Shown one piece after another: positions 2,839 through 63,884 of a DNA stretch of 64,000 bases. The position numbers were made by a program, and so were the translations under genes. The DNA is from Promethearchaeota archaeon (GTDB lineage Archaea > Asgardarchaeota > Lokiarchaeia > Sigyniarchaeales > SOKP01): contig JBHLNS010000003.1 of assembly GCA_048941285.1 (NCBI GenBank), forward strand, positions 3,914 through 67,913, given 5' to 3'. The number at the start of each line of letters is the position of its first letter. The first letter of the stretch is position 1. Under the pieces are notes generated by a model. The model did no database searches and was not told the DNA's origin. It saw only the letters and a program-made list of their open reading frames with translations.

Positions 2839-4062
2839 GTGAAGAAAAGATATTTAGTGATACTCCCAATCTTAATATTAGTAGAAATTTTAAGTGTTAT
2901 TAATTTAGTAAATGCTTTTGATTGTAATCTAATATGTCTAAACACAAATAAAACCAAATATTATAGAGATGAATTTGTTAAAATAAATGCCTCTTGGATT
3001 ATGAATTACGATGATAAAACAGAAATTGCTTATACCCAAATTCATATAACGGATTTTTTTGATAATTTTGTTTGGAATTCATCAAAATACTACCAAATTG
3101 GATTACATCAAGGGAATTGGACTGTAAATTTCGAAGATTTGAATTTAAGTATAGAAAATTCATCCCATATTCTTTTTATAAAATTTTTTGTATCTTTTTT
3201 TCATATTGATACTTCAAGTACAATGTGTTATTATCTTGAAACAATAGAAATTAGAGTTATGAAAAGAAATATATCATGTGAATTAATTGGATATAAGGAT
3301 CAGATAAAAGTAGGCGAAGATTTATCTTTAATAGCTAAATTTTATAGTAAATTTTCTGAACATAATCAATTATTAATTAATCAGACAATAGACTTTATGG
3401 TTTCTTTTAATGATTTAATTATATATCAAAAAAATTATATGACAAATTCATCGGGTGTTATTCAGATTTACCTGATTTCACTCAAGCATTTAAAGCTTGG
3501 GAAGAATATTTTAACTTTTTCAATCACAAATAACAATTTATATAATGATTCAAAATTTGTATATGAAATTTACGTCGATAAATACGACTTAGTCATTGAA
3601 GTTGTTGATTTTAATAATAGAATAGAAATTGATGAAGATTTGGACATAAAATTATCTCTCCATTATAATATTAATCAATCAGATATAATTTTAGTAAATT
3701 ATAAAATATTGATAAAGATTTTTGATAATAAATCATTAACATTCATCAATGAATATTGGACTGATAAATCTGGAGTTTTAGAAATCTCAATTTCTCAAAA
3801 TTCCTTTAATTATAATCAAGAGATAAAAGATTTCATCATTAAAATTTTTTTAAATGAATCAAATTATTTTAATAATGAAACTTTAATATTGAATCTTGAT
3901 GTACATCAAAATATTTATTCAAAAATATTAAATTCATTTCAAATGAAAATTTTTTCTTTTACGTCAATTCTTATTGCCATTCTAATATTTCTCTCATATA
4001 TAATCATTAACAAAAAAAGTAAAAATGAAAAAGCGCTTACCGAATTGATCATTAGATATTAG
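2839..4062 (+). CDS. secreted, C-terminally membrane-anchored surface protein with two Ig-like repeat modules
   Basis: GTG start. N-terminal signal-like segment KKRYLVILPILILVEILSVINLVNA. Many N-x-S/T sequons. Two similar beta-rich modules (..VGEDLSLIAKF...TNSSGVIQIY.. and ..IDEDLDIKLSL...TDKSGVLEIS..). C-terminal TM segment plus a basic tail. Confidence 0.5.
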   Translation: MKKRYLVILPILILVEILSVINLVNAFDCNLICLNTNKTKYYRDEFVKINASWIMNYDDKTEIAYTQIHITDFFDNFVWNSSKYYQIGLHQGNWTVNFEDLNLSIENSSHILFIKFFVSFFHIDTSSTMCYYLETIEIRVMKRNISCELIGYKDQIKVGEDLSLIAKFYSKFSEHNQLLINQTIDFMVSFNDLIIYQKNYMTNSSGVIQIYLISLKHLKLGKNILTFSITNNNLYNDSKFVYEIYVDKYDLVIEVVDFNNRIEIDEDLDIKLSLHYNINQSDIILVNYKILIKIFDNKSLTFINEYWTDKSGVLEISISQNSFNYNQEIKDFIIKIFLNESNYFNNETLILNLDVHQNIYSKILNSFQMKIFSFTSILIAILIFLSYIIINKKSKNEKALTELIIRY

Positions 4063-9422: not shown

Positions 9423-9845
9423 TTAATATAAGATAATTAAATTAATTTTGATAAAAGACAAATAATGGGAGATATTCAAAAGATATGACCCTGGAGTAAT
9501 TTCTTGAAAGTTTTGCTTGACAAAATACCCATCATATTCTTTAATTTTAACACAAAGTTGATTTTCTATTAAAAATTCATATCTGGCAATGTTAGAATAT
9601 AATGTCAAATTTAAATTAGATGGATATTCTATATTCCGCAAATATGTCTCATCTTGATTTTCTATTACATGATTAATTCCTTGGTCAATTTCGTTAATAA
9701 AAAACATATAATCTTCTAATTCATTTCTTCCATTTTGATTAAATTCTACTATAGTCCCTAAGAAAGGAATTAATATAGAAGAAAAAATTGTAAGTGTAAA
9801 AATCCCAAAACCTAATAATAAGCTTTTTTCAATCAGATTTGTCAT
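9423..9845 (-). CDS. N-terminally membrane-anchored small protein (FlaF/FlaG-like or pilin-like accessory)
   Basis: A single N-terminal hydrophobic helix (LLLGFGIFTLTIFSSILIPFLG) followed by a beta-rich soluble domain. It sits between the ATPase and platform genes. Confidence 0.4.
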   Translation of the reverse strand: MTNLIEKSLLLGFGIFTLTIFSSILIPFLGTIVEFNQNGRNELEDYMFFINEIDQGINHVIENQDETYLRNIEYPSNLNLTLYSNIARYEFLIENQLCVKIKEYDGYFVKQNFQEITPGSYLLNISHYLSFIKINLIILY

Positions 9846-9861
9846 ATATTTGAATAACTAT

Positions 9862-14263: not shown

Positions 14264-15381
14264 TTAATATTTCTTCTAAATTCCTTAAAATTAAAATTTT
14301 GAATTTCTTTTGCATTAATGACTTTAAGTTTCTCTATTAATTTTATAGACTTAATTTTTTGCAATTCCATATTCCCTAAATAATTTAATATTAAAATATA
14401 AATAAAATATTTAGGATGGTATTTTTCAATGATTTTATAAATGTAATTACAATCCAGTTTTTCTAATATTAAAAATAAATAACTTTGCTCAATAACAATT
14501 AAGTTTTTGCTTAATCTTATGTATTCTATTTGATTATTTAACAGATTTTCTTCAAAATTTTTATTCATTTCTAATAAATTATGAAAATCAGATGGGATAT
14601 TAGAATAAAACAAGTCAAAATAATTATTATAAAAAAAAAAAATGTTATTAATTCCCAATCTCCAGAGAAAATTAGAAAATGTCTTAATCTTAATATTTTC
14701 TCTTTTCAATAAATTAGAATGAAAAAAATTGTTAACCTTTTTCTCAATATCAGGAGGGGTGTTTACATCATCAGATTTTAAAACAAAATAAGGTGAAATT
14801 CTAATGTTATCACGATTATCCATTTTAAAATTAAATATTAAATACCCTTCCTGCCCGATATTACTGATAAGATTTAAGAAATTTGATATAAATAATTTTT
14901 TTTTTTCAATTAGATCAAAATCAATTATAAAAAAGTCTAAAACATTTGATTTATTCTCAGTCGATATTACAATAGAGTCAAGACTTTTTGTTATAGTTGG
15001 ATTAGAACTGAGATTTTGGAAAATAATTGATAAAAATCTCTCTTCTAAGACTTTTTCTCTTAAAATCTTAATTTTATTATAGTTCTCCTCTAAAGTTTGT
15101 TTTAGCATATTAAAATTTTTAATTATATTTTCTTTTTTACTCTCTTCAAAATTAAGAATTATAAGTATTCTATTTTTATCATTTGTGTCTATTTGAATAG
15201 AGTAATATTGAATTATTCTACGGATTAGCAGTTTATTTAAGACAGAATCCAATAATTTATAATTTTGACATTCTAAAATTGTAAACGCGATAATTTTGCT
15301 GTTTTCTTTTAAACTCTTGTAATAAATTAAATTATTCTCGATAAGATATGAAAAAAGTTTATATTTAGTCTTTTTTACCAT
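14260..15381 (-). CDS. hypothetical protein (373 aa)
   Basis: Long clean ORF convergent on rpl23, overlapping it by 4 nt. No family recognised. Confidence 0.5.
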
Positions 15382-39383: not shown

Positions 39384-39653
39384 TTATTTGCCTTTTGACT
39401 TAGAAACTTCCGTCTTTTCCTCTGTTTTCAAATATCCCCGGAGTAGATAATAACATAAAAGGATTGAGATAAGCTCGACAATAATACTAACAAATGAAAT
39501 GATTGGACCATTATATCCTAAATATCTTAAAAAAATGGCACATGCTAAACCACTAGATGCTAAAATCACAAGAAATAATGCTTTAACTATCTGTGAAAAG
39601 GAACTTATTATATATCCAATTTCTTTTTTAATCCATGATAATACTGAAGCCAT
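39384..39653 (-). CDS. small two-TM membrane protein (89 aa)
   Basis: Two long hydrophobic segments and a charged tail. Same strand as, and downstream of, the giant ORF pair. Confidence 0.4.
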   Translation of the reverse strand: MASVLSWIKKEIGYIISSFSQIVKALFLVILASSGLACAIFLRYLGYNGPIISFVSIIVELISILLCYYLLRGYLKTEEKTEVSKSKGK

Positions 39654-39781
39654 AAGAATCCAATATTTGTATCTAATTTTAGTAAAGTAAGGAAAGAATA
39701 TTTTAATATGTTTTTTATTTCAAGATTAAATTTCAAAATAATATGTAAAAGAATTTAATCATATTATCTTCTTGAAGAGAA

Positions 39782-42172
39782 CTACTTTTTACTTTTAAAC
39801 TTGGTGTACAATGCTTTATCTAGGAACTTTCCAATTTTTATAGCAACCTGATTACCAATTTCATATCTTTCTCCATCGAGTAATTCCTTCTTTTGTCCAG
39901 GAGAAGAAGCAATATTAAGCCTTTTCATTAAAATTTTTTCCGTAATATCAATAACCATTGCTTTAATCTTTCCATAATCAGGTAATTTAATACCTGGATC
40001 AAAATTTTTAATTTTATCTATCGCAAAGTTAAAAAATTCAGAGATTAATTCAATTGGGTCTCCTTTTAATTCACTATGAAGTTTAATATTGTCAGTGGCT
40101 ATTTTCGTGTCTTTTTCCTGCCAGTATAATTGGTTTGGGTTAATTCCAGGACTATTAATTCTCATAAGAGAACTAGTGATTCTCCGTTCAATCCAGTTTA
40201 AAGTGCTTATTTCTTGAACTTCTCGGATTTTTTTAGCCTTCTCCTCTTTTATTTTCTCTTTAGTTTCAATTATACGTTCAACTTCCGCTTTACGACTTTC
40301 TTCGAATTTTTCAAATCTTTTAATTATATCATATCCAATACAATATGATATTGGAGAGATAATGTCAGATTTTAACTTTAATTCCGCAACATCTTGATAT
40401 ATTAAACTGACATTATTTCTTAATTCAGAAACTGCTTCTTTTAAAGAGCTTTCCATCACTCTTGCTAATATAAATCCATTAACTAGAAAAGGTTGGTTGT
40501 TGGCATCAAATACAGTAACTAATTCTTCTTGTCTTTTATTTAATCGCTTAATTATCAATTCCTCAAGTTTTATTTTTATCCACTCTTCTGAATCAGTAGT
40601 ACCGTCAATTTTTTTTAATGCTAACAAAAATAAAGATCTATCATTGGATACCTTAGAATAAACTTCTATTATCCTACTAAGCTGTCTTAAAATCTTAGAT
40701 AAAATATAGAAGAAAATGTCTTTTGCGATTCTGTTTATAATCTCTTCAAATTCTAAAATGAATAATATATGACTGTAATTTTTGAGTTGTAATTCACCTA
40801 AAAAGACTTTATCAATCGCTTGTTTTTTTCTAATGTACTGACGCAAGTTATTAATGTTTATTCCTGCTTTTTCTTCTAAAATTCTTAATAAAGTTTGAGT
40901 TTTACTTGGATCTTGACTCAATATGTTTAATAAATCGAATTCGGAGATCTCTTCGGATTTATTTATAATTTCATTAATATCTTGGAAACACCTCTCAGAA
41001 ATGGCCTTTTTAGCTAAATATATTAAGTTTTGGTCAGCATCATTTAAAGATACTATATCTAACTTTTCTATATTGTATCTAACCAAATTTCTTTTCACTT
41101 GGGCTGTAAGATCTTCATCAACATTTAATAGATGTAGAATGTTGAATACACCATATTTTTTTAGAGTATATATTATATCATCAAATCCACATTCATTTAT
41201 ACATTGTAGGAAGTAGATAAAATCATTCGGCTTTTCTTTAAGCTTTTTAATTAATGTAAATTTTAGAAAATTAAGGATCTTGATTTCAAACTGGTCATAA
41301 TCGATTTTTTCCTCAAGGGCGCTTTCAATTTTATATATAAGATCTTTTTTAAGATTATTTGCTTCAATAAATACTTTTAATCCAGGTATTGAAATGGGAA
41401 ATTTGTTAAAATTATAGTCAATGACTTTTCTCTTTATCATTCTTACAGGCATTGCTTCAATTTGCAGTTCTTTATACGATTTAAATTCAAAATCTGTTCG
41501 GATTTTATCTATCAGTCTTTGTAAGGTTGCTAGTTCTATGAATTTATCTTCCTTTTCTTCCAATTCCAGTTTTTTCTCTAATTCAACAGATATATCTCTA
41601 AAAGCAGCAGATTCTTCTAATATTTCTCTTTTAACTTCATTACCGAGACCTATTAAATCACCTATTAAATCATAAAAGTAGAATTGGGGATAATTTAATA
41701 TGATTTCTTGCAGTTCCCTTTCAAAGTAATCTTCAAGATCTTTCAACATTCTTTGCTTTTGAATATCTTGGATTTCTTCCTTTCTTTCTGCGATCAAAAA
41801 AGAAATAAATCGATTTTCTAAGTCATTTATTTTGTTTAGAAGATTAATTTCTAAACTTAAGGAATTCTTTAATAGTGAATTAACCTCATCTATAATAATT
41901 TCTTTTTCATTGAGTTCTAAACTTTTAGTTGAGTCGTATGTAAATTTATCCTTATCTGTAAGCTTCTGAACTCGGATTCCTAAACTGTGATAAATATGAA
42001 TACTAGCAGTAGCAATCAGTAAATCATTAAAGCTAGTTTTCTGACTAACAAGCTCAAAGATTTTATTTTTGTCAGCTTCCCTTTTAAAATGTGAAATTAT
42101 TAAATCAACGGTTTGAAAAAATCTAAATGTACTTTCAACTGCATCTTTTTTCCTTTTAACACCACTAATCAT
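39782..42172 (-). CDS. orphan large helical protein (796 aa from the second ATG)
   Basis: The ATG at 42172-42170 overlaps the upstream stop as ATGA. A GGTGA SD motif lies 7 nt upstream. No catalytic motif recognised. Confidence 0.7.
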   Translation of the reverse strand: MISGVKRKKDAVESTFRFFQTVDLIISHFKREADKNKIFELVSQKTSFNDLLIATASIHIYHSLGIRVQKLTDKDKFTYDSTKSLELNEKEIIIDEVNSLLKNSLSLEINLLNKINDLENRFISFLIAERKEEIQDIQKQRMLKDLEDYFERELQEIILNYPQFYFYDLIGDLIGLGNEVKREILEESAAFRDISVELEKKLELEEKEDKFIELATLQRLIDKIRTDFEFKSYKELQIEAMPVRMIKRKVIDYNFNKFPISIPGLKVFIEANNLKKDLIYKIESALEEKIDYDQFEIKILNFLKFTLIKKLKEKPNDFIYFLQCINECGFDDIIYTLKKYGVFNILHLLNVDEDLTAQVKRNLVRYNIEKLDIVSLNDADQNLIYLAKKAISERCFQDINEIINKSEEISEFDLLNILSQDPSKTQTLLRILEEKAGININNLRQYIRKKQAIDKVFLGELQLKNYSHILFILEFEEIINRIAKDIFFYILSKILRQLSRIIEVYSKVSNDRSLFLLALKKIDGTTDSEEWIKIKLEELIIKRLNKRQEELVTVFDANNQPFLVNGFILARVMESSLKEAVSELRNNVSLIYQDVAELKLKSDIISPISYCIGYDIIKRFEKFEESRKAEVERIIETKEKIKEEKAKKIREVQEISTLNWIERRITSSLMRINSPGINPNQLYWQEKDTKIATDNIKLHSELKGDPIELISEFFNFAIDKIKNFDPGIKLPDYGKIKAMVIDITEKILMKRLNIASSPGQKKELLDGERYEIGNQVAIKIGKFLDKALYTKFKSKK

Positions 42173-44475
42173 AATTCCTTCACCCATTCCCTATATACTT
42201 CCTTAAAATTATCTGACAACTCGAACCGAGCATTATTATGCCAGAATCTGAAATCTAGCACATGATAAAGATCACTATTAAATAATTCTTTTTCTTCATT
42301 TGTTAAAATATGTTTTAAAATTACTGTTAACGGTCTCGGTACTAATTTTGAAAAATATTTAAGTTCTGTATTTTTTATATAATCATAATACGTCTCATTC
42401 TCATCCAGATTTAAAAAGTTTAAAGGTAAAATATTTTCTGGTTGAGAATTTAGATTATTTAGATCATTTTTTATATTACTTTTCACATAATTCGGAAATT
42501 CGGTATTAATATCAATACTCAGTTCATAATTTTTATAAAATTCAAACAACAAATTTCTCTCTTCTGGATTGGTTAGCTTTGCGATATATGTATCTAAAAA
42601 ATTTAAGAAATTTTCGATTTTTTGCTCATTAGATTCTCTTTCTTCAAAATATCCTATAAAATCATAATAAACTTCGTCTAATGTCCATGCCCTTTGTTCT
42701 TCTGGTCTTAGATACTTTTTAGAATAATCAATGATCCAATTTAGAACATAAAATTTCCATTCTAGATTGATTCCACCTATTCTCTTTTCTAAAAACCTGT
42801 GAAACCTATTTGAAAAGCTAACGGGGTCGCTAATTTCTTTATCAGGTTCTTCTTTTATATAGCGATTTATTGTAGAATGCCTTAAAACGTAACTTAACAA
42901 ATAATTTAATTCGGTTGAAAATTTCTTAAATTTTTCAATATGATTTTTTATGCTATGTATTTTAGATTCCATTTGAATTTCCGCAAAAGAGATTAAATCT
43001 TCTATTTTCAGATCAATATCATTAAAAAATGTATCAATACTCTTGTTAACTAGGAAATTAAACTCTTTTATTAGTTCGCTCTCATTAAATTTAAGATTTC
43101 TATTTAAAAGAAGTGGATGAGTTTCAATTTGGTTAAACAGAAATATCTTAAACTTATTTATTAGCTTTTGTCCTAGATTTTTTGCTGGTTTTTGTTCTAG
43201 GTTAAATTTTTCAAAGATTTTAATCATTAAATCTATTATTAGAGTTTTCAATCGTCGATATGAAAGATATCTTGGAAGAGATACTCTGATTAGATTAAGG
43301 CCTTTATTTATAATTTCTGAAAAGTAGCTAAAAACTGAGCTTAATTCTACTATTCTTAGACTCACTTTTTGAGTCATTGACTGCTTTATAAACTTTTTTG
43401 CTATTTTCCAGATCGGATAAAAATCTATGCTTTCTAATTTTCCTTTATTCAATATAAAGTATTCAAATTTGTTTAATAAATCATCAAGATCCCCCATTTC
43501 CCCTGTGCTAAGAAAATTTTTAGAGTATTCTAGGAATTTATTTAAATGTGTCTCTAGATCAATTAAAAATGAATTTACATTAGAAACAAACCATTCTGCC
43601 GTATGTGGTTCATTTATATTTTTTATTTTTAGTGTAATGTAATTAACTATGAATATAATTATTTCATCCAGAGATTCATCTATAGTACCAGTATTTGCCA
43701 AATTGATTAGATTAGTTCCTAAATTTAATGTCTTATCAACAATAAAATTAACACTTGGCTCTGATATTGAGAATTTAAGATGCTCGATTGCCTGTTGGCC
43801 ACTGAAAGAAGTTTTTATTTTTTGAAATTTTGAATTATACAAATTAATTTCCATAGGCTTTTTATACCATATAAACTCAACATCAGATACAATTCTAGCA
43901 TAGGTGTTTAACAATTCTTCTTCAGTTGGTAAAGTTTTACTTATGCCAATTAACTTCTTGTTCCATTTGTCTTCAACTAGTTCTCCATAAAGTTTCTTAT
44001 TAAATCTCGAAGCAAAGTTATTATATATCTGTTTTTTATTTTCTTTATTTAATTCTGGACGATCAGAAAATTCTTCTACTTCAAAAAAAAGTTTACTTAT
44101 ATTATTCAAAGATTCTCTCGATTTGTGCATATCTAAAACACCAGTCTCTGGTTTCAAAGCAAGTAATAGACTTTCACAATCTTTATATCCACCCGGCATG
44201 AAAATCATTGATTGTGGGTAAATATTTATCCGAGCACTCTTTTCATCAACATTGTATAAATCAAACTCAATACTGAATACTTCTGACCCTGTATAATCTC
44301 TTAAAATTGCATTATACATAGTTAAATATTTAATAACTTCTTGAGATAGTTCATTTACTTTTTCTCTTGTAAGTCTTCCAGGACCAATTACATCTCCAAC
44401 AATCACATCATTTGGAGAAGAATAACCAAATATCAGAGAATACTGATAACTTATAAATTCGCGTGTTGTTATCAT
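42169..44475 (-). CDS. orphan large protein (768 aa): N-terminal alpha/beta segment plus a long helical body
   Basis: 2.3-kb uninterrupted ORF. The first ~120 aa alternate strand-like (SLIFGY, VIVGDVIG, VFSIEF, INIYPQSMIFM, SLLLALK) and helix-like segments. No catalytic motif recognised. Confidence 0.7.
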   Translation of the reverse strand: MITTREFISYQYSLIFGYSSPNDVIVGDVIGPGRLTREKVNELSQEVIKYLTMYNAILRDYTGSEVFSIEFDLYNVDEKSARINIYPQSMIFMPGGYKDCESLLLALKPETGVLDMHKSRESLNNISKLFFEVEEFSDRPELNKENKKQIYNNFASRFNKKLYGELVEDKWNKKLIGISKTLPTEEELLNTYARIVSDVEFIWYKKPMEINLYNSKFQKIKTSFSGQQAIEHLKFSISEPSVNFIVDKTLNLGTNLINLANTGTIDESLDEIIIFIVNYITLKIKNINEPHTAEWFVSNVNSFLIDLETHLNKFLEYSKNFLSTGEMGDLDDLLNKFEYFILNKGKLESIDFYPIWKIAKKFIKQSMTQKVSLRIVELSSVFSYFSEIINKGLNLIRVSLPRYLSYRRLKTLIIDLMIKIFEKFNLEQKPAKNLGQKLINKFKIFLFNQIETHPLLLNRNLKFNESELIKEFNFLVNKSIDTFFNDIDLKIEDLISFAEIQMESKIHSIKNHIEKFKKFSTELNYLLSYVLRHSTINRYIKEEPDKEISDPVSFSNRFHRFLEKRIGGINLEWKFYVLNWIIDYSKKYLRPEEQRAWTLDEVYYDFIGYFEERESNEQKIENFLNFLDTYIAKLTNPEERNLLFEFYKNYELSIDINTEFPNYVKSNIKNDLNNLNSQPENILPLNFLNLDENETYYDYIKNTELKYFSKLVPRPLTVILKHILTNEEKELFNSDLYHVLDFRFWHNNARFELSDNFKEVYREWVKEL

Positions 44476-44893
44476 AATCTAATTTCATTCACTTATATAA
44501 TTGTTAAATTAATCAATTCAAAGGATAATTAACCTAGCTATAAACCTTTAAACTAAATTTATTGCCATGTTAAATATTTTAAGTTTATAAAGTAATAAAA
44601 TTTATTTTTGAATACTAAATAAAGTACGCGTTTAAAAATATTATAGAAGAAATAAGACATTTTTCTAATTAGTTATTCAATCTTTTTTTTTTAAACTAAC
44701 CTAAATTCGATCTATGATTAAAAGAACAAGAGTGCTGAATCACATAATCCATAATTATGATGGCTCTCCAAGTTTTAGGTAATGATGCTCATAATTAAAT
44801 AAAACTTTTAGTTTCGAAAATAAAAATATAATAAGATAAAAATTATTATATTTATAATAATAATAAAATCTAAAGCACAAAAGGTGTGGAGAT

Positions 44894-45298
44894 ATTCAAT
44901 TTGGGTCTGACTTAGGAATCAACCAAGATGATATCGAAAAAATTAGTCCTCAAATTACTTTTATAACTTCAAATGCAGATATTGAGGCCATTGCCCTTGT
45001 ATCTCAAGAAGGTTATCAAATAGCATTTAGTGCATTACCACAATATCATGTTGATGGAGATCAATTTTGTGGGCTCTCAAGTGCCTTATTAATGACTGGA
45101 AGATCAACTATTCAGACATTATTTCAAGAAGATTTGAGTGAAATTATAGTTCGAGCACAAGATGGTTATATAGTGATTACAAATGCAGGTAGATTAGTAA
45201 TTGTGTGTGCAGGAACTATTATTGATACTTTAATGAAAACTGTGAAAGTTATGAGGATTGCTGCTAAAAATCTTTATAAAATTTTCGAAGATCGCTGA
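44894..45298 (+). CDS. Roadblock/LC7 (MglB-like) domain protein, probable non-canonical ATT start
   Basis: The frame is open from 44867. Translation ..IEAIALVSQEGYQIAFS....GDQFCGLSSALLMTGRSTI...EIIVRAQDGYIVITNAGRLVIVCAG fits the Roadblock pattern. The only in-frame ATG (45092) would remove half the domain. GGTGtGGAG lies just upstream of the ATT at 44894. Confidence 0.6.
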   Translation: MQFGSDLGINQDDIEKISPQITFITSNADIEAIALVSQEGYQIAFSALPQYHVDGDQFCGLSSALLMTGRSTIQTLFQEDLSEIIVRAQDGYIVITNAGRLVIVCAGTIIDTLMKTVKVMRIAAKNLYKIFEDR

Positions 45299-45435
45299 TT
45301 TAATTTACTTTTTCAATAATTTAGCAGATTTTTCTAATATTATAATTCTCTAGACGTTTGAAAATCTTATTGGCCAAGAAAATCTTAAAATTAAAGCATC
45401 TTTTAATAATTAAAATTATTTTAATATGATCATTT

Positions 45436-46464
45436 TTGAATGCTCTTTCGATAATAATTCTTAGTTATTTATATGTTTACAGCATAATTATTCTCTATAT
45501 TACTTATTTAGCAAAAAAGAAAAGAGAAACTGGTGCTTATATAAATAATTTAGTCAATGCCTTAATTCTTATTATATCTCTCACAATAAATGTAATTCTA
45601 ATAAACATATTTAACCTCTATGACAGAGAATTCATTAACTTTCCCTTTAACATTTTAACGATTGCATTTATCTTATTTTTTTTACCAATGTTTTATCTAT
45701 TTATTTATCGAGAAAAATCTAAAATTAAAACCAACAAAAGAAGGAATAGGTACCTTGAATCTCAACAATTCACAGAACTACCTCTCAAATACGATATATA
45801 TAGAAAATTAAGCCATTTTGTTGCATTAGGAATAATTTTTTTCTATTTTACTTTAGGGTTTATACTTCAAAACTTTTTAATAATTGTCGAAGGAGATATA
45901 ATGATTTTTTCCCAGTCCTTAGTTGTCTTTTTAGTAATGATATCTTTGATAGGCCTTTTAACCGCTGATTTTATTCGGATATTAACGCCTAAATTTTATC
46001 CATTAAAACAAGTTAATCAAATATTAAGAGAAAAAGAACTACATATGAGGTTAGGCCCTCATATTTCTATGAGCATCGGATGTTTTTCAATAATTTTATT
46101 ATTTGGCATAATTCAACCCATTGGGCCCATAATAATCTGTACTTCTATGGCAATGTCTATTTTTGGAGATGTTACAGCAAATTTAGTAGGACGAACTATA
46201 GGTAGCAGAAAGATTAGAAAAACAAACAAAACTTATGAAGGTTTGATAGGGGGTATAATTGCTGCCTTTTTATCAGGCGTGATTGTGTTATTAATATTAA
46301 GAAATTATTATAGATTCAGTATTTTAGGATTATTACTAATTCCTTTTATAGGAATATTAATAATTGGAATAATAGATTATTTGGATTTAGAGATTGACGA
46401 CAATTTAACATTTAATTTTTGTGTATCGACAATATTATTTTTTTGTTCATTTTTAATATTATAA
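45436..46464 (+). CDS. CTP-dependent polyprenol (dolichol) kinase / cytidylyltransferase-family membrane protein
   Basis: TTG start. Polytopic. The C-terminal signature ..FGDVTANLVGRTIGSRKI..TNKTYEGLIGGIIAAF resembles the CdsA/Sec59 family motif. Confidence 0.5.
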   Translation: MNALSIIILSYLYVYSIIILYITYLAKKKRETGAYINNLVNALILIISLTINVILINIFNLYDREFINFPFNILTIAFILFFLPMFYLFIYREKSKIKTNKRRNRYLESQQFTELPLKYDIYRKLSHFVALGIIFFYFTLGFILQNFLIIVEGDIMIFSQSLVVFLVMISLIGLLTADFIRILTPKFYPLKQVNQILREKELHMRLGPHISMSIGCFSIILLFGIIQPIGPIIICTSMAMSIFGDVTANLVGRTIGSRKIRKTNKTYEGLIGGIIAAFLSGVIVLLILRNYYRFSILGLLLIPFIGILIIGIIDYLDLEIDDNLTFNFCVSTILFFCSFLIL

Positions 46465-46505
46465 GAGAATTATCATAAATTTTTTCAATCAAGATAGTTT
46501 TTTTT

Positions 46506-47018
46506 ATGAAAATGTTAGAAGAAAAATTGAAAATTGATAAAATATCTAAGGGTACAGTTATTGATCATATAGATGCCGGATATGCTATAACAATACTCAA
46601 TCTTACTGGCTTGGATGAATCTAAAAATTTAATGACAATTGGGGTTAATGTTTTATCAAAAAAATATCAAACAAAAGATATAATTAAAATTGAGAATGTT
46701 TTTTTAAATGAAACTCAAATGCAACAAATATCTATATTATCTCCTAATGCTACAATTTCCCTAATTGAAAATTATAAAGTGATTGAAAAAAAAAAGGTGG
46801 AACTCCCCCAGATAATTAAAAAATTAATCTTATGTGTAAACCAAACATGTATTACTAATTCAGAAAAAGAGCCTATAGACACTGAATTCTTAGTTTTAGA
46901 AGAAAAACCTTTAAAAATTCAATGCATTTACTGTGAACGTATATATAAATTAGAAGAAATCGTTTTCACTTCAAAAGAAAAGAAAGAAATGAAAGTAAAA
47001 CAAAGAATTCAATTATAA
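46506..47018 (+). CDS. pyrI: aspartate carbamoyltransferase regulatory chain
   Basis: ..LKIDKISKGTVIDHIDAGYAITILNL.. and the C-terminal zinc domain CVNQTC....CIYCER. Confidence 0.8.
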   Translation: MKMLEEKLKIDKISKGTVIDHIDAGYAITILNLTGLDESKNLMTIGVNVLSKKYQTKDIIKIENVFLNETQMQQISILSPNATISLIENYKVIEKKKVELPQIIKKLILCVNQTCITNSEKEPIDTEFLVLEEKPLKIQCIYCERIYKLEEIVFTSKEKKEMKVKQRIQL

Positions 47019-47035
47019 AGAGAAATAAAATAATT

Positions 47036-47476
47036 CTATAAAAAAATTTCAAGAACAGAAGAAAAATTTGGAATAAAATTAAGTATTGTATGAAAAAGCA
47101 CACCCACGATCATAAATAAGAAAAAAAAAATACCAATCCCTGGCTTTATAATATTCTTCCAATTCCACTCTTCTTTGTCGTATTCATATTTTAGAATATT
47201 AAAACTAACGATAAACGGGAATAAAAACCACCATAATAACATCCACATTAACATAAACCAACCAATTAATCCAAAAAATAAACGCCCTACAAATGCACTT
47301 AACGCTCCAGTAAGCGCTCGAATCCAATAAAGTTTTGTTTCTCTCTCAATTCGTAGATCAAATGATTTTAATGGTTTCTTTTCAACTTGAATTGATTGTT
47401 TTTTTTGTTCTTTCCTTTTCTCTTTTAAAAGGCGTTGTCTTCTTTTCTTAATATCTATCTTCTTGCGCTTTCCCAT
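47036..47476 (-). CDS. small membrane protein with a basic N-terminal tail
   Basis: Lys/Arg-rich first 40 aa followed by 2-3 TM segments rich in W/F/G. Confidence 0.45.
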   Translation of the reverse strand: MGKRKKIDIKKRRQRLLKEKRKEQKKQSIQVEKKPLKSFDLRIERETKLYWIRALTGALSAFVGRLFFGLIGWFMLMWMLLWWFLFPFIVSFNILKYEYDKEEWNWKNIIKPGIGIFFFLFMIVGVLFHTILNFIPNFSSVLEIFL

Positions 47477-47548
47477 AATTATTATTATAAATATTATTTA
47501 TTATAAAAATCATTATGCATTATTAATAAACTACAAATCAAACCTAAT

Positions 47549-49600
47549 ATGATTACTCCATCTACAGAATTTACTAATTTTGACGTATTTGCTATTGTAA
47601 AGGAATTAGATTTAATATTATTTAATGCTACGATTCTAAATATATATGAAGTAGAAGATATTTTGATATTAAAAATCAATACTAATATTGGGAAAAAAAA
47701 TTTAATTATCAAAAAGGATTCAAGGATTAATTTAACTGAATATGATTATCCTATCCCCCAATATCCAAGTCAATATATAATTTCGCTAAGAAAGTTATTG
47801 AAAAACCGCAGAATCTTAAAAATTTCGCAATATCAATTCGATAGAATCATTATAATTGAATTGAGTTTCGATTTAGCCCGATCATGGAAATTTGTTATAG
47901 AACTATTTAACAAGGGTAATTTCTTGTTATTGGATGAAAATAATATTATAAAAGTGGCCAAAAAATATAGAAAGTTTAGAGATAGAGATATCCTACCTAA
48001 TAAAGAATATCTTTTTCCTAAATCTCAAGGAAAAAATTTTCTAACTTTAAATAAGGAAGAATTTAAAGCTTTATTTAACAGCTCTGATCTGGAAATTGTC
48101 AGGGATCTCTCAAGAAGTATACATATTTCTGGATTATATAGTGAAGAAATATGCCATAGAGCTAAAATAAATAAAATAAGCCTTGGAAAAGATTTAACTG
48201 AAGAACAGTACGAAAATTTATATGATTCCTTCAAAAAGTTAAGAAATCAATTATTATTTGGTGAAATAAATGCCTATATTGTATTTGATAAAAACGATAA
48301 TCAAATTTCAGTTCTACCCTTTGAAATTGAAATTCTTTCACAAAATAACAAAGAATATTTTCCGTCATTTAATGAAGCTGTAGACAAATATTTTTCCAAA
48401 ATTGATTCTGAAGCTCTAAAAGGGCCCAAAGATCAAAAAATTGAAGACCAAATTAAATCTCAAGAAAAGATATTAAAAAATCAAGAAGAATATCTTGAAG
48501 AACTCAAAAAAAAAAAAGATGATTACTATAAAATTGGCGAATTAATTTATGCTAATTTAAATTCCTTAGAAAAATTAAAAGCTGTAATCTTGGACGCAAA
48601 AGAAAAAGGGTATTCATGGGATATTATTAACAACAAACTTAAAAGCGCAAAATTAGAAAATTTAAATGGTACCGAATTTTTTGAGAAAATATTCCCATCA
48701 ACTAATGAATTTTTGATAAATGTTAATGGCAATAGTGTTTATCTGGATTTAAAAGAAAGTATTGGAGAAAATGCGAATAAAATCTATTCTAAAGGAAAAA
48801 AAGCGGATAAGAAGTTAAAGGGAACTATTACTGCTATTGAAAAAACTAGAAAAAAAATTGAGAAGTTAAAGCTTGAACGAGAATTAATAGAAGCTGAAGT
48901 TGATTTCTTGATTAAGAAGCCTAAGAAAAAATGGTATGAGAAGTTTAGATGGTTTTTATCGTCTGATGGATATATAGTCATAGGGGGAAGAGATGCAAAC
49001 TCTAATGAAATTATTTTTAAAAAGCATATAGAGCAAAATGACTTAATTTTTCATACAAATTTTCCAGGATCTCCATTAGTAGTAATTAAAAATCCAGATA
49101 ACAAGAAGATCCCTATAAGTACTATTGATGAGACCGCACAATTCGTTGCATCTTATTCAAGGGCATGGAAAGAAAACTGGGGGGTAGTTGACGTATATTA
49201 TATTCATCCAGAACAAATTTCAAAAAGTCCTCCCTCAGGGGAGTTTTTGCACAAAGGTTCTTTTATAATATCTGGTAGGAAAAATATCATCAAAAATGTT
49301 AAAACTGAATTGACGATTGGACTAAAATTTGACGAATTAGAAGCAGAATCTAAAAATGATCATAAAATATTTTATCCTAAAATCATTTCTGGTCCAAAAT
49401 CTGCTGTAACAGCGCAGACCAAAAACATTTTAACAATTATTCCATCAAAATCAGATGGTTTAACGAAAGGAAAGTTAGCTAAAGAGCTCTTGTCGAAGTT
49501 CCACAGAAATTTAGAAAAAGAATTAAGAATTTGGATTAAATTATTATCTATAGATGAAATTCTTCTTTCTTTACCTAGTGGCATATCAATAATTAAGTGA
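47549..49600 (+). CDS. NFACT-family protein (Rqc2/NEMF/FbpA homolog)
   Basis: NFACT-N-like start FTNFDVFAIVKELDLILFNATILNIYEV, a central coiled coil, and the NFACT-R/DUF814 segment ..GGRDANSNEIIFKKHIEQNDLIFHTNFPGSPLVVIK. Confidence 0.85.
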   Translation: MITPSTEFTNFDVFAIVKELDLILFNATILNIYEVEDILILKINTNIGKKNLIIKKDSRINLTEYDYPIPQYPSQYIISLRKLLKNRRILKISQYQFDRIIIIELSFDLARSWKFVIELFNKGNFLLLDENNIIKVAKKYRKFRDRDILPNKEYLFPKSQGKNFLTLNKEEFKALFNSSDLEIVRDLSRSIHISGLYSEEICHRAKINKISLGKDLTEEQYENLYDSFKKLRNQLLFGEINAYIVFDKNDNQISVLPFEIEILSQNNKEYFPSFNEAVDKYFSKIDSEALKGPKDQKIEDQIKSQEKILKNQEEYLEELKKKKDDYYKIGELIYANLNSLEKLKAVILDAKEKGYSWDIINNKLKSAKLENLNGTEFFEKIFPSTNEFLINVNGNSVYLDLKESIGENANKIYSKGKKADKKLKGTITAIEKTRKKIEKLKLERELIEAEVDFLIKKPKKKWYEKFRWFLSSDGYIVIGGRDANSNEIIFKKHIEQNDLIFHTNFPGSPLVVIKNPDNKKIPISTIDETAQFVASYSRAWKENWGVVDVYYIHPEQISKSPPSGEFLHKGSFIISGRKNIIKNVKTELTIGLKFDELEAESKNDHKIFYPKIISGPKSAVTAQTKNILTIIPSKSDGLTKGKLAKELLSKFHRNLEKELRIWIKLLSIDEILLSLPSGISIIK

Positions 49601-49606
49601 AAAAAA

Positions 49607-50350
49607 TTAAGCTGAGGCAACCCAACTTTTAATTGTTGTTATATTTGCATGGTTATCAAATAAGATACCATTAATACCCATATCAATTAACCATTTAATC
49701 TCAAATATTGGATCTTTGTAATGTATAAAATCCCATGCTAAAGCTTTTATTTTATAATCATGACAAATTTCAATAAATTTTTTAGAAGTTAAATTTGATC
49801 TTAAACTTATAAAATCAGGTTTAATCTTGAATTTTGTAGGACTATCAAATTTCAAAAATTCACTTATATCAAAATCTAAACCTTTAGTAAGATTATAACA
49901 TATTCGACTATTGTGGTAAACTTTCTTTATTTCACCTAATTCATTTAAGTTCCTCCCACTAAAAATGCAATCTTCCAACAAGTTATAATTTTTAACAATA
50001 CTTAATACCTCCTCTTTTATATTATCATCTTTCAATTCAATCATAAATAGCGTTTTTCCTTTTAATAAGTTTAGCACCTCTGATAAGAGAGGAATAGTGT
50101 TTTTATGGTTTTTAGTTGATATATTTTTTATTTCACTATAATAAAGATCTTTTAACAAACCTGAACTATTTGTCGTTCTATCTAATTTAGGATCATGTAG
50201 AATCACCAGTTTATTATCTTTAGTCCTTCGCACATCAAATTCTATACAATTAGCGCCATATTCTATCGCTTTTTCAAATGCATTTATTGTATTCTCATCA
50301 AAATGCGTTCTAGTACCTCTGTGTCCTACGTATAAAAATTCTGATTTCAT
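49607..50350 (-). CDS. glycerophosphodiester phosphodiesterase (GDPD)
   Basis: ..VGHRGTRTHFDENTINAFEKAIEYGANCIEFDVRRTKDNKLVILHDPKLDRTTN.. Confidence 0.85.
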   Translation of the reverse strand: MKSEFLYVGHRGTRTHFDENTINAFEKAIEYGANCIEFDVRRTKDNKLVILHDPKLDRTTNSSGLLKDLYYSEIKNISTKNHKNTIPLLSEVLNLLKGKTLFMIELKDDNIKEEVLSIVKNYNLLEDCIFSGRNLNELGEIKKVYHNSRICYNLTKGLDFDISEFLKFDSPTKFKIKPDFISLRSNLTSKKFIEICHDYKIKALAWDFIHYKDPIFEIKWLIDMGINGILFDNHANITTIKSWVASA

Positions 50351-50375
50351 AGCAGAACTTTTAATAATTGTTTTT

Positions 50376-50789
50376 TTATTCTTGAATTAAAAATAGGTAT
50401 ATTAAAATAATTGATATACCAATTAGAGTAAGAATAAAAACAGATGGGTTCAATAGAGTCTGGCCAATAGAAAAAATAACCATTAAAAGTAAATCTTTCC
50501 AATTTAATCTTTTACCGATTAATTCTTTATAATTCGCATAACTAGTAATAATAAATAGAAAAAACAATAAAACAACAATTACTTTTATGGTAATATCAAT
50601 AAAAGTCCATAATAAATCAATATTCATGAAAACTGTTATTATTTCAGCATTAAAAATAATTGACACTATAAAAGATACGCATCCAAAAATGGCTGATATA
50701 ATTATTGATCTAAACGCAAAATTTTCATCAGACCGATAATTCTTATTTTTTTTTTTATTTATTGGAGGTTGTTTGGGTATTTTTGACAT
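50376..50789 (-). CDS. hypothetical membrane protein (137 aa)
   Basis: Three to four hydrophobic segments. No family recognised. Confidence 0.4.
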   Translation of the reverse strand: MSKIPKQPPINKKKNKNYRSDENFAFRSIIISAIFGCVSFIVSIIFNAEIITVFMNIDLLWTFIDITIKVIVVLLFFLFIITSYANYKELIGKRLNWKDLLLMVIFSIGQTLLNPSVFILTLIGISIILIYLFLIQE

Positions 50790-50790
50790 G

Positions 50791-51591
50791 TTATTTTCTA
50801 TATTTTTTTATATTTTCTTTTAGTTTAAAAATTTTATAAATGTAAAAAATTAAAACAAACCCTAGAATGCTAAATACTATTATAGTTAATATATAAACAA
50901 CAATATTGATAATTGAAGGTATTTCCGGGGATAATGATTTAATATTGATGAGAACTATTGTACTTTTTTTAATTCCATGAGGGTATATTGGTGTATCTCC
51001 ATAGGTAATATTGAAAGCATATCCACTTCCAAAATCTAATGCCGCATCATCCGCATTTGCATCGTATCCTTTAATAGGTAAAGCAAACTCGTAAGTAGAA
51101 GTGAGATCTTCTAATTCAGCAGCTCCCTCACCATTTATTTCTGTATCGATTAAAAAAACACCATCAGTAACATTATAATCATAATAATTATATTGATTTA
51201 CAGATATGTTGGTGAACTGAATTATTTTAGCATCAATAAATTCTTCTTTATTCTCAGAAGAACTATTTGACACGATAAGTCCTATAAACTCATTTATACT
51301 GTGATGCCCGAGCAACAATTCGAACTGAACAGAAATATAAAGATTTATATCATCTTGCATAACCCATAATTTGATAGGTAAATCCTCTAATAAGATATCA
51401 GTTTTATAAGCCTTGTTCCACTCTTTTGTTGAGAGATCGATATACCCATCAATTACGGGAGATTCTCCATATTTTGAGTTGATTTCCTTAGTGGCACAAT
51501 AACCGTTCGCTAAAAAAAATAGGGACACTACGGTTATATTAATAAGCACAATACAAGTTAATACTTTAAAAAACTCTTTCTTCAAGATCAA
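50791..51591 (-). CDS. secreted protein with a C-terminal TM anchor (possibly CBM9/DOMON-like fold)
   Basis: Signal-like N-terminus, ..PVIDGYIDLSTKEWNKAYK...DDINLYISVQ.., and a C-terminal TM segment plus basic tail. Confidence 0.45.
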   Translation of the reverse strand: MILKKEFFKVLTCIVLINITVVSLFFLANGYCATKEINSKYGESPVIDGYIDLSTKEWNKAYKTDILLEDLPIKLWVMQDDINLYISVQFELLLGHHSINEFIGLIVSNSSSENKEEFIDAKIIQFTNISVNQYNYYDYNVTDGVFLIDTEINGEGAAELEDLTSTYEFALPIKGYDANADDAALDFGSGYAFNITYGDTPIYPHGIKKSTIVLINIKSLSPEIPSIINIVVYILTIIVFSILGFVLIFYIYKIFKLKENIKKYRK

Positions 51592-51777
51592 ATAGCCATT
51601 TATTTTTAAAAACTTCTATTTTCTGTAATGCTAAATATAAAAATTGATAATTAAAATTTAATTTAATATTTTTCGTATAAATTTTGTATATTACAAAAAA
51701 TTCGACATCGAATTTCGCATTTAAAATAAATATTAAAATTTTAACGCTCTCATTAACCTACTTAAAAAATCTTTAAT

Positions 51778-52257
51778 TCAGTTAAAAAAATTTGGAAGCA
51801 AAACAATACAGTTAAATTTATTTAGATAAACTATAATATAATTCATCAGACGCTTAATATCTCGCCTAGCTTCTAATGAGTTCTTGTCATTGTACTCAGC
51901 GAAAGGTTTAGGACCAATAGCAACCAATATACCTGATAAATCTTTTTCTCGTTTAATGAAAAACCAAAAAGGATTTTGTTTTTCATTATCTTTTACTAAT
52001 ATGAGCATCCAAGGATTTTGCGTCCAGTCTTCATCATTAGGACCAATTACTTTTTCAATTGTTTTCTGAATTTGATACTTTTTAGTCATTTTTATTGTTT
52101 TAGTTAACGCATTAAAATAACTCCGTTTTATTTTTAAATAACCTCCAAAATATCCTTTAGCATCAAACAATTCTAGCTCTTTCTTTTCTCCATCTGGTAA
52201 TTTCAAAAATACTCTCCAATTATCAATCATAGTTTTATTCGTGTTTTTTAAGTCCAA
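51778..52257 (-). CDS. hypothetical protein (159 aa)
   Basis: Clean ORF overlapping the upstream gene end. No family recognised. Confidence 0.4.
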   Translation of the reverse strand: MDLKNTNKTMIDNWRVFLKLPDGEKKELELFDAKGYFGGYLKIKRSYFNALTKTIKMTKKYQIQKTIEKVIGPNDEDWTQNPWMLILVKDNEKQNPFWFFIKREKDLSGILVAIGPKPFAEYNDKNSLEARRDIKRLMNYIIVYLNKFNCIVLLPNFFN

Positions 52258-52669
52258 TTTCTTCTATTTTTATTTGTTTAAATATCTTTTTAATCTTATT
52301 TAAAGATGCTTTTAGCCCAATAGCTTTAGCTTCATCTAAATTTAAATTCAAATAACATTCATAGTAAAGTTGGTTTTCAATAATTATAACTCCTGAAGTA
52401 TGAATAAGCTGACAATTTTGAAGAATCTCAGAAATTTTAGCAAACATTTCATTAGAAAATTTAAATGCTGAAAATGTTACCTTTATGACTTTATCTTTTT
52501 TTAGTGGATATATTGAGAGTTTCATAGAGTTCTCTATAATTGATTGAATTATTAAAAGATATGGATTATCCTCTAAGTTTTTCATGTCTAATAATGAAAG
52601 TTTTAAAATACTTCCTGATAGATCTCTAATACGTTGTATATGGGCTTTAGTTAAATTGTATACCTTCAT
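52235..52669 (-). CDS. hypothetical protein (144 aa, ACT-like?)
   Basis: Clean ORF downstream of the RNase P protein genes. No family recognised. Confidence 0.4.
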   Translation of the reverse strand: MKVYNLTKAHIQRIRDLSGSILKLSLLDMKNLEDNPYLLIIQSIIENSMKLSIYPLKKDKVIKVTFSAFKFSNEMFAKISEILQNCQLIHTSGVIIIENQLYYECYLNLNLDEAKAIGLKASLNKIKKIFKQIKIEEIGLKKHE

Positions 52670-52695
52670 CTTTATTTAAATAATTAATTTTTAAT

Positions 52696-53034
52696 CTAAA
52701 TCAATTTTTTCTTATCAATTCTCTTTTTTAGTGAGAGAATCGTACCTGAAGTTTTATATGGTGATAGAATAACTCTTATTCCATCGATTTCTTTTACAAG
52801 ACTTAAAGCAGAAATTAATGTTTCTTTCGTCTGGTGAGAACATCTAATTATTCCAAATTCTTTATCCAAATTAAGTTCTATTAACCATAATCCAATTTTA
52901 TTTGCCTCCTTTAATCCAAAATATCTCCAGATGGATTGCCAAATTGATTTTAAAAGTGAATTTTGAGAAATTTCTATTTGATTTTTTTTAATTATTTTAA
53001 AAAAAATATATCTTTGTCTTTCTTTTCGGCCGAT
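52696..53034 (-). CDS. rnp2: RNase P protein component 2 (Pop5/Rpp14), no canonical start codon
   Basis: My own translation of the frame open from 53040 gives LIIGRKERQRYIFFKII...FGIIRCSHQTKETLISALSLVKEIDGIRVILSPYKTSGTILSLKKR. RYI.F, IIRC and SGTI are Pop5 hallmarks. The gene is absent from the track because the first ATG/GTG/TTG is at codon ~58. GGTGAT lies 5 nt upstream of the ATC at 53034. Confidence 0.7.
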   Translation of the reverse strand: MGRKERQRYIFFKIIKKNQIEISQNSLLKSIWQSIWRYFGLKEANKIGLWLIELNLDKEFGIIRCSHQTKETLISALSLVKEIDGIRVILSPYKTSGTILSLKKRIDKKKLI

Positions 53035-62927: not shown

Positions 62928-63884
62928 ATGAACGAATCAAGAGATTATAAAAAAATACTATTTTGTGGTTTAGAAAATGGTGGAAAAACATCAATTTTAT
63001 TAATATTAGATAAAAAATTTAGTTTACTAACTACTGTTAAACCGACTATAAAAGCAAGAAGAACTATCCACACAAACTCATTATTAGGCACCACTATTGT
63101 CCGGTGGGATTTAGGTGGTCAAAAAGTTTATAGAAAAATATATTTAGGGGATAAGAGTAGGTATTTCACAGAAATGCAATCAATTTTTTACGTTATTGAT
63201 ATCCAAGCACCTAAAAAATTTGAAGAAGCTATAAATTTTCTTAAAGATATAGTAAACATCACCTCAGATTCGCGCCCCGATAATTTTCAACTTTTAATTT
63301 TACTTCATAAATATGATCCAGACATTAAAAACAATAGTAATATTATAACTAACGTAAAATTTTTAGAAAATGAGATTTCATCAATTATTAAAAACATTAA
63401 ATATTCTATATTGAAAACCTCGATATATGATGAACCAAGTCTGTTAAAGGCTTTTTCTGATGGTGTTTTTTATGCCACTCACAAATCTGAAATGTTCCAA
63501 ACTTTATTAAAAGATTACATGGGCAAAACTTATAATAGCTCTACGCTATTATTGGATCAGAATTGTTTTATTATTGCTAGTAGAAGTACAAATCAAGCTT
63601 ATCAAGAAATATGTGAGTCTATAGCGCCAAGGTTAACTCAAGCATTAGAAAAACTAGAAGAATGGGATATAAATACAATAGATATTGTAACAAACATAGA
63701 ATTTCCAGAAAAACATTCAGAATTTCAAAAAGAAGGCATTATTTTTCTTAGAAAATTAGATATTGGAGAAACTCGACTATACTTGGTCGCACTTTGCTTA
63801 AATAAGAAGGTCAAAATTAAATCCTATGAATATTTGCCATTATTAGCAGAAAATTTAAAAAATCTTTTAGAGAGTTTTGGTTAA
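62928..63884 (+). CDS. Rag/Gtr-family small GTPase with a C-terminal roadblock-like domain
   Basis: G1 GLENGGKTS, G3 WDLGGQ, G4 LLHKYD (the HKxD variant typical of Rag/Gtr). The segment LKTSIYDEPSLLKAFSDGV parallels the RagA TSIWDETLYKAWS region. About 140 aa of C-terminal alpha/beta sequence follow. Confidence 0.75.
   Translation: MNESRDYKKILFCGLENGGKTSILLILDKKFSLLTTVKPTIKARRTIHTNSLLGTTIVRWDLGGQKVYRKIYLGDKSRYFTEMQSIFYVIDIQAPKKFEEAINFLKDIVNITSDSRPDNFQLLILLHKYDPDIKNNSNIITNVKFLENEISSIIKNIKYSILKTSIYDEPSLLKAFSDGVFYATHKSEMFQTLLKDYMGKTYNSSTLLLDQNCFIIASRSTNQAYQEICESIAPRLTQALEKLEEWDINTIDIVTNIEFPEKHSEFQKEGIIFLRKLDIGETRLYLVALCLNKKVKIKSYEYLPLLAENLKNLLESFG

Follow-up and report, generated by a model that had tools for sequence, protein, structure and literature searches.

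The window analysed here, the whole 64,000-nucleotide (nt) stretch from position 3,914 to position 67,913 of contig JBHLNS010000003.1 of a Promethearchaeota archaeon (assembly GCA_048941285.1), carries on its minus strand two long open reading frames (ORFs), which we call A and B. Gene A (42169-44475), recognised as an ORF and through its homologues, encodes 768 amino acids (aa), and gene B (39782-42172) encodes 796 aa; the corresponding NCBI records, ACFFA4_01795 and ACFFA4_01790, belong to a 149-kb Promethearchaeota contig and are both annotated as 'hypothetical protein'. The genes are joined by the tetranucleotide ATGA at 42169-42172, in which the TGA stop codon of A (42171-42169) overlaps the ATG of B (42172-42170). 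A Shine-Dalgarno (SD)-like GGTGA (42180-42184) is found 7 nt before this ATG, within the final codons W-V-K of A, and the coding strand reads ...GAA TGG GTG AAG GAA TTA TGA TTA GTG.... This arrangement had been described in an earlier reading of the letters alone (hereafter the sequence-only reading), all of whose coordinates were correct. The searches and comparisons reported here show that A and B are real, conserved, single-copy, chromosomal and coupled genes without detectable relatives in known families.

If B began at the first ATG of its ORF, the product would have 801 aa (39782-42187). In an alignment of 51 homologues, residues M1, I2, S3, G4, K6, R7 and K8 of the 796-aa form were invariant or nearly so, the conserved N-terminus being MISGVKRK. 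Since the N-terminus of the shorter form is conserved among homologues, the ATG within the ATGA overlap is taken as the true start of B, and the 801-aa annotation is, as judged from the alignment, an over-extension. In 65 of 81 Lokiarchaeial loci the spacing between the genes is -4 nt, while the others show -7 nt (six loci), -1 nt (one) or +2 nt (eight), and the tetranucleotide at the start of B is ATGA in 68 of the 81. The conserved 4-nt overlap exceeds chance. An SD-like tetranucleotide lies at most 18 nt before the start of B in 44 of these loci, and part of the constraint on the GGTGA motif comes from the conserved stretch of A that codes for REW. The window has a GC content of 26% with no compositional break around the A-B locus; upstream of A, an AT-rich, semi-conserved element at about -40 to -22 is present, which is not decisive in a genome of such composition.

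Relatives of both proteins are numerous. In a collection of 5.8 billion proteins, A had 297 relatives and B had 345 at E ≤0.001; the best 120 of each show 60-88% identity, and length hardly varies in either family. Nearly all relatives of A are exactly 764-768 aa long, and the mean column identity is 76-77% in the alignments of A and B, the variable part of B being an insert at about residues 390-450 that is missing from relatives of 734 aa. The term 'orphan', applied to the two proteins in the sequence-only reading, therefore had to be dropped. When one genome per GTDB species was scanned, relatives of A were found in 122 genomes, all of them Lokiarchaeia-type metagenome-assembled genomes (MAGs). 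Some of these MAGs carry inconsistent phylum labels: the near-identical loci of the JBHL* MAGs, which stem from one BioProject, are variously labelled Hod-, Thor-, Hermod- and Odinarchaeota, so that NCBI labels are unreliable here, and one MAG is mis-binned as an actinobacterium, a Lokiarchaeia-type locus (L061, DATKTW010000128.1) standing under the label 'Candidatus Nanopelagicaceae bacterium'.

Each of the 83 related loci examined contained the pair A-B, as a rule in one copy, and its place in the chromosome, amid housekeeping genes, is fixed. The gene order in these loci is near-invariant: a Roadblock/LC7 gene (minus strand) is followed by A, B and a small protein with two transmembrane (TM) helices (all plus strand) and by a PD-(D/E)XK-like gene (minus strand). 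Loci L067 and L070 carry the A-B-TM block in inverted orientation, flanked by the nuclease-like and Roadblock genes, and A, B and the TM gene therefore constitute a unit that moves together. Two tandem A-B pairs were seen on L069 (5450-17304) and on L056 (406-8355), the first pair of L056 having a truncated B; these are either true tandem duplications or artefacts of strain collapse during assembly.

The pair is not confined to Lokiarchaeia. A profile search against 1.84 billion cluster representatives gave only 99 matches, about 30 of them full-length clusters at 50% identity. Those bearing names belonged to Lokiarchaeota, Helarchaeota, Thorarchaeota, Freyarchaeota, Jordarchaeales and Ca. Lokiarchaeum ossiferum (NEF87_002840); no non-Asgard relative was found among the named matches, most matches being nameless. 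In the family-wide alignment the identity of A falls to 14-20%. In 44 metagenome loci of Thor-, Jord- and Frey-type, a B-like ORF of about 800 aa starts at -4 to +6 nt from the stop codon of A wherever the contig is long enough. In a lineage with 54% GC, a divergent A' (764-770 aa) abuts a B' of 590-598 aa next to aIF5A and SRP54, and hhalign identified these proteins as counterparts of B with a probability of 99.5% and of A with 97.8%. In L. ossiferum, an A of 785 aa, 29% identical to A of the window in the family alignment, is followed 4 nt later by a B of 815 aa, then by a 94-aa two-TM protein in the same position as in the window and by a nuclease-like gene on the opposite strand; the gene upstream of A is a major facilitator superfamily transporter and not a Roadblock gene. 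Lastly, in three Helarchaeales-type loci, the gene directly after A encodes a small protein whose N-terminal tail is charged and whose C-terminal part holds two TM helices; these loci contain no B.

The remaining neighbours vary by lineage. Thor-type loci have an MBL-fold hydrolase upstream and CutA1 and DHDPS-Fae downstream; Jord-type loci have a HEAT/adaptin-like gene of 404 aa 1 nt after B, followed by a zinc-ribbon protein; and Frey-type loci have MfnB and then a Ras/Arf-like GTPase. The sole constant is A-B or, in Helarchaeales, A together with a small TM protein. In the two Jord-type loci compared, an ORF of about 400 aa lies on the same strand 1 nt (L090, 13016-14230, plus) or 45 nt (L091, 13067-14266, plus) after B; that of L090 encodes a HEAT-repeat protein (HEAT_2, E=2e-28; Adaptin_N, E=9e-18), with the small zinc-ribbon protein after it, and a lineage-specific third subunit is possible. 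In the Frey-type locus L084, a 236-aa Ras/Arf-like small GTPase (14278-14988, plus) is encoded on the same strand 1.1 kb after B, with the gene for MfnB (4-HFC-P synthase) between them, and L089 has ORFs of the same sizes and positions (9539-10249, plus, at the position of the GTPase), matched by size and position alone. Helarchaeales-type loci have a gene of about 404-412 aa divergent from A (L132, 4489-5715; L134, 4570-5808; L135, 4612-5826; all minus), which could be a lineage-specific replacement partner; the product of the L132 gene, the only one translated, is repetitive, rich in Ser, Gly, Ala and Pro, and has no Pfam domain.

Searches for known families gave nothing above noise for A or B in Pfam, NCBIfam, PADLOC and PHROGs. 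PHROGs returned sub-threshold noise only, PADLOC had no match for A, B or the 89-aa two-TM protein of the window, and Pfam searches of 10 distant relatives of A, 10 of B and 40 members of the family alignment yielded coiled-coil noise only. Profiles of both proteins, built either from Lokiarchaeia alone or from the whole family, matched only designed helical bundles among PDB sequences, at E ≥0.01. No relative was found in the viral contigs of IMG/VR. Every homologue is annotated as 'hypothetical protein' and is devoid of Pfam domains. The sequence-only reading had likewise seen no resemblance to a known family and, by eye, no P-loop, HExxH or Cys cluster; a regular-expression search confirmed that Walker A (P-loop), HExxH and CxxC motifs are absent from both proteins.

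Protein A, whose AlphaFold2 (AF2) model has a mean predicted local distance difference test score (pLDDT) of 71 and a predicted template modelling score (pTM) of 0.71, comprises a conserved mixed alpha/beta N-terminal region (about 1-220), a helical core (about 230-700) and a small beta-rich C-terminal domain (about 711-755). The helical bundles (from about 230/270 to 700) are confident, with pLDDT 80-95, while residues 1-190 stay below 50. The model of B (pLDDT 65.5, pTM 0.52) contains helices only and no strands of at least 3 residues. Long helices were predicted at 609-671 of B (63 residues) and 375-425 of A. Thus, the sequence-only reading was roughly right in calling the bulk of A helical, although it missed the C-terminal beta domain; the alternation of strands and helices that it described in the N-terminal part is compatible with the sequence, but AF2 models this part at low confidence. 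Foldseek against the PDB gave best E values of 0.077 for A and 0.18 for B, with template modelling scores of about 0.1, the model of B being of moderate confidence only, and the best hit of the A model in BFVD had E=0.07. Both families are unclassified, with no known relative by sequence or fold in the searches run, in the case of B with a model of only moderate confidence. A possible paralogy of A and B was rejected (hhalign probability 0.1%), as were internal repeats or domains shared between them (at most 26% in segment-versus-segment comparisons).

Conservation is not distributed as the model confidence is. The most conserved parts are those modelled least confidently, namely residues 1-120, 150-180 and 240-270 of A and residues 1-30, 150-240, 480-570 and 660-690 of B, and such conserved segments of low pLDDT would fit folding on a partner. 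Across the whole family, only P87, R157 and W573 are nearly invariant in A, and E96, D168, R500, E503, S589, D615 and R619 are invariant in B; this pattern is more in keeping with a scaffold than with an enzyme. The A proteins of Thor-, Jord- and Frey-type carry inserts of roughly 100-150 columns before the C-terminal domain, which have only coiled-coil-type Pfam matches and, in the Thor-type, also contain proline-rich stretches. B has a basic N-terminus (KRKK), and Thor-type B (e.g. L109, 10604-13063) has a CxxC...CxxH zinc-ribbon insert in its C-terminal third that is not found in Lokiarchaeial B.

Taken together, A and B probably form a two-subunit complex. The suggestion of the sequence-only reading that translational coupling reflects a stoichiometric complex has gained weight, for Lokiarchaeia, the Thor-, Jord- and Frey-types and the lineage with 54% GC all have A followed by B at -4 to +6 nt. 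That A and B are simply functionally independent neighbours, whose overlap results from genome compaction, is quite unlikely. Overlaps of 4 nt are frequent between unrelated neighbouring prokaryotic genes, overall synteny is high in this Lokiarchaeial clade, and A occurs without an adjacent B in the Helarchaeales-type; however, at least five lineages that diverged deeply and whose other neighbours have all changed still have A-then-B at ≤6 nt, which would not be expected of unlinked genes.

The explanation that we favour, although tentatively, is that A-B is an ancient, vertically inherited, Asgard-restricted and translationally coupled scaffold complex, probably tied to the membrane in Lokiarchaeia and Helarchaeales, which serves as a platform for other factors. 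We infer a scaffold or structural role rather than an enzymatic one because there are no catalytic motifs, invariant residues are few in A, both proteins are largely helical and the inserts are of coiled-coil type. According to this explanation, A would be translated from its own promoter, and ribosomes ending at its TGA would re-initiate at the overlapping ATG of B; A and B would therefore be made at about 1:1 and assemble as the chains emerge. The segments that are conserved but not folded by AlphaFold alone (A 1-190, B 175-241 and B 509-559) would be the likely inter-subunit or partner-binding surfaces.

The small two-TM protein of the window (89 aa, 39384-39653, minus) lies 128 nt after B on the same strand, as the sequence-only reading had noted; it has two hydrophobic helices, and its C-terminal tail is charged. 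In nearly every Lokiarchaeial locus a two-TM protein is encoded after B, and in the inverted loci L067 and L070 it has moved with A-B. It is a probable third component and membrane anchor: in Lokiarchaeia, its charged cytoplasmic tail would tether or recruit the soluble A-B to the cytoplasmic face of the membrane, where A-B would act as a platform for other factors. The recurrence of a small TM protein in three contexts makes a membrane tethering of A-B possible.

Several observations weigh against this explanation. In the three Helarchaeales-type loci no B lies next to A, so that A apparently need not have B in cis. No sequence similarity was detectable between the small TM proteins of different lineages, whose tails are oriented oppositely, and these proteins may be unrelated; moreover, no small TM gene regularly follows B in Thor-, Jord- and Frey-type loci. 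The low pLDDT of the conserved segments could merely reflect a shallow alignment, with about 2 effective sequences (Neff). In the papers searched we found no mention of NEF87_002840 or its neighbours, and no expression data were found.

In their size of about 770-800 aa and their mostly helical, multi-bundle build, A and B resemble CATCHR and HEAT/alpha-solenoid scaffolds, which they would also resemble in a probable membrane recruitment through a small membrane protein; the HEAT/adaptin-like gene after B in Jord-type loci is a further likeness. They differ from them in that the best Foldseek E values were 0.07-0.18 with template modelling scores of about 0.1, and in that hhalign detected no internal repeats in A or B. 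With other uncharacterised Asgard-specific families they share that all records are hypothetical; here, in contrast, we have a coupled two-gene unit present in several Asgard classes and in a cultured representative.

As a more specific function, the sequence-only reading had put forward a possible GTPase-regulatory scaffold. In the form considered here, an N-terminal longin/roadblock-type domain of A would act with B, the neighbouring Roadblock protein and a Rag/Arf-like GTPase as a platform of the guanine nucleotide exchange factor (GEF) or GTPase-activating protein (GAP) kind, a prokaryotic counterpart of Mon1-Ccz1, FLCN-FNIP or GATOR1-type complexes. We consider this improbable. The neighbouring genes on which the proposal drew are indeed present: a Roadblock/LC7 gene (44894-45298, plus; Pfam Robl_LC7, E=3.9e-8) is divergent from A at 418 nt from its start, where a distance of about 420 nt had been given, and a Gtr1/RagA-like GTPase is encoded at 62928-63884 (Pfam E=4.7e-23). 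By eye, the alignment gives for A 1-167 the elements beta (about 8-17), beta (23-30), alpha (36-62), beta (64-75), beta (83-93), beta (100-108), alpha (117-137) and alpha (144-167). This inferred order is that of a longin domain, and Thor, Jord and A' members, again by eye, keep the hydrophobic pattern. AF2 recovers part of this order: for residues 1-190 it shows alpha-beta-beta-beta-alpha-alpha at low confidence (pLDDT <50) without the first hairpin.

Neither protein could be connected with longin, Roadblock, DENN or a GEF/GAP family by any profile or structure search. Neither A nor the 40 family members had a longin-type or DENN match in Pfam, and Foldseek returned no longin structure for A. 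In hhalign comparisons with the Roadblock and Rag-like families of the window, the N-terminus of A gave no signal (0.4% against Roadblock), in a test of little power whose positive control, Roadblock against the C-terminal domain of Rag, was also without signal. A longin-longin pairing finds no counterpart either, given that B is made of helices only and has no family match, and that hhalign detected no domain common to A and B. DENN or further longin domains were not found in A, whose residues 230-700 are helical with pLDDT 80-95 and are followed by the small beta domain. Compared with Mon1-Ccz1, FLCN-FNIP, NPRL2-NPRL3 and C9orf72-SMCR8, A-B is alike in having two large subunits made together, in that one of them, A, opens with an alpha/beta region of about 170 aa whose inferred order matches longin, and, in part of Lokiarchaeia, in the presence of Roadblock and Rag-like genes in the wider neighbourhood. 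It differs from these heterodimers in lacking sequence or structure similarity to them, in an all-helical B that provides no second longin, and in the absence of DENN or tri-longin parts, the rest of A being helical bundles and the small beta domain.

Synteny across Asgard genomes, proposed in the sequence-only reading as a check, bore out the A-B pair but not its Roadblock neighbour, which adjoins A in about 80 loci, all from a Lokiarchaeial subclade in which A is at least 47% identical; the gene is not adjacent in L. ossiferum, in Helarchaeales-, Thor-, Jord- or Frey-type loci or in those of A'-B'. Within the subclade, the block bearing the Roadblock gene is collinear, also with PyrI, NFACT and GDPD. 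As collinearity in this clade extends over more than 15 kb and includes unrelated genes (a TM protein, PyrI, NFACT, GDPD and the RNase P protein Rpp14), the adjacency says little on function, and the Roadblock gene is probably not part of the A-B unit. In many relatives a Rag-like GTPase is encoded about 8 kb past B, after genes for L15e, DUF2095, a HAD protein and a nitrilase; in the window it has been relocated by an inversion and lies 18.5 kb from B. In a comparison of window positions 38637-53000 with L001, L003 and L011-L021, the block bounded by the PD-(D/E)XK-like gene and GDPD/Rpp14 was inverted relative to the L15e-DUF2095-HAD-nitrilase-GTPase block. The Ras/Arf-like GTPase 1.1 kb after B in Frey-type loci and the HEAT/adaptin-like gene directly after B in Jord-type loci would also suit a GTPase-regulating platform. 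However, Asgard genomes contain small GTPase genes in very large numbers, and finding one within 10-20 kb should happen fairly often by chance. The neighbourhood of Roadblock and GTPase genes is not conserved with A-B, which is a further difference from the longin heterodimers.

With the MglB/Roadblock-small GTPase modules of prokaryotes the window shares a Roadblock/LC7 gene, the immediate divergent neighbour of A. MglB-type modules are small proteins encoded with their own GTPase, whereas the Roadblock gene of the window forms a transcription unit of its own without an adjacent GTPase and is unlinked to A-B outside one subclade. A broader version, in which A, B and their small two-TM partner form a hitherto unrecognised Asgard-wide membrane-associated machine of new folds, with a longin-like module of A engaging small GTPases or Roadblock proteins as a forerunner or an independent analogue of the eukaryotic longin platforms through which GTPases are regulated and organelle identity is defined, is a long shot.

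An elongated coiled-coil or helical-bundle assembly for the organisation of the cytoskeleton or of chromosomes and nucleic acids instead of a role at membranes, perhaps acting with the PD-(D/E)XK neighbour, is likewise improbable. The long predicted helices of both proteins, the coiled-coil-type inserts in A of Thor-, Jord- and Frey-type, the zinc-ribbon insert of Thor-type B, the basic KRKK of the B N-terminus and histone genes near the Helarchaeales-type and A'-B' loci would all agree with it. The neighbour itself is a 242-aa gene (38637-39365, plus) convergent to the operon, with a Cas4-like nuclease match in PADLOC (E=2e-5), a Pfam PDDEXK_1 match below the cutoff (E=0.0019) and the signature HIDLI...IIDYKPEG. 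It adjoins the pair in nearly all Lokiarchaeial loci and is a constant neighbour up to L. ossiferum, whose copy (L131, 15217-16029, minus) shows 36% identity (E=3e-48). Nevertheless, this gene is convergent and not co-oriented with A-B, it was not found beside the pair in the non-Lokiarchaeial lineages examined, and its membership in the A-B unit is uncertain. In addition, no search connected A or B with SMC, kleisin, Rad50 or known families of the cytoskeleton, neither protein has an ATPase motif, and the recurrent two-TM partner points to the membrane.

Finally, the possibility that A-B belongs to a mobile element, a provirus or an anti-virus defence island, to which large uncharacterised proteins beside a Cas4-like nuclease-fold gene and a variable 1204-aa ORF nearby might have pointed, is close to refuted by the presence of the pair in all 83 related loci at a fixed position among housekeeping genes and usually as one copy, by a GC content equal to that of the surroundings, and by the absence of PADLOC or PHROG matches for A and B, of a BFVD fold match for A and of an IMG/VR relative. 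The 1204-aa ORF (34704-38318, minus) has no match in Pfam, NCBIfam, PADLOC or PHROGs. Its relatives adjoin the locus in few genomes only (L005 and L007, with 67-68% identity, and others with 32-48%), and it represents a variable region beside the conserved block.

The high conservation of A and B, their large size and the lack of named non-Asgard relatives mark a core, lineage-defining Asgard cellular component. If A-B is a membrane platform or a GTPase regulator, it bears on the organisation of Asgard membranes and protrusions; if neither reading holds, two large families still leave the list of unknowns. Since conserved unknowns are common in Asgard genomes, the pair is a good target for the specialist rather than a shock. 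Its presence in the cultured Ca. Lokiarchaeum ossiferum, as NEF87_002840 and the next gene, makes it testable, and pull-downs, localisation and cryo-EM are feasible there.

A minor observation concerns the start of the Roadblock gene. In the stretch 44864-45298 (plus), none of ATG, GTG and TTG occurs in frame ahead of residue 67, yet residues 1-66 are conserved and the Pfam match covers them. The gene of the window starts at the near-cognate ATT, and in 80 Lokiarchaeial loci the homologous first codons were ATT (29), ATA (20), TTG (13), ATC (8), ATG (5), GTG (3), GTT (1) and TTA (1). No upstream in-frame canonical start was present in any locus with these first codons, GTT excepted. In the examples printed, a strong SD sequence of the AAAGGTG type lies a few nt upstream of the first codon. 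This looks like a conserved near-cognate AUH initiation, possibly serving translational throttling.

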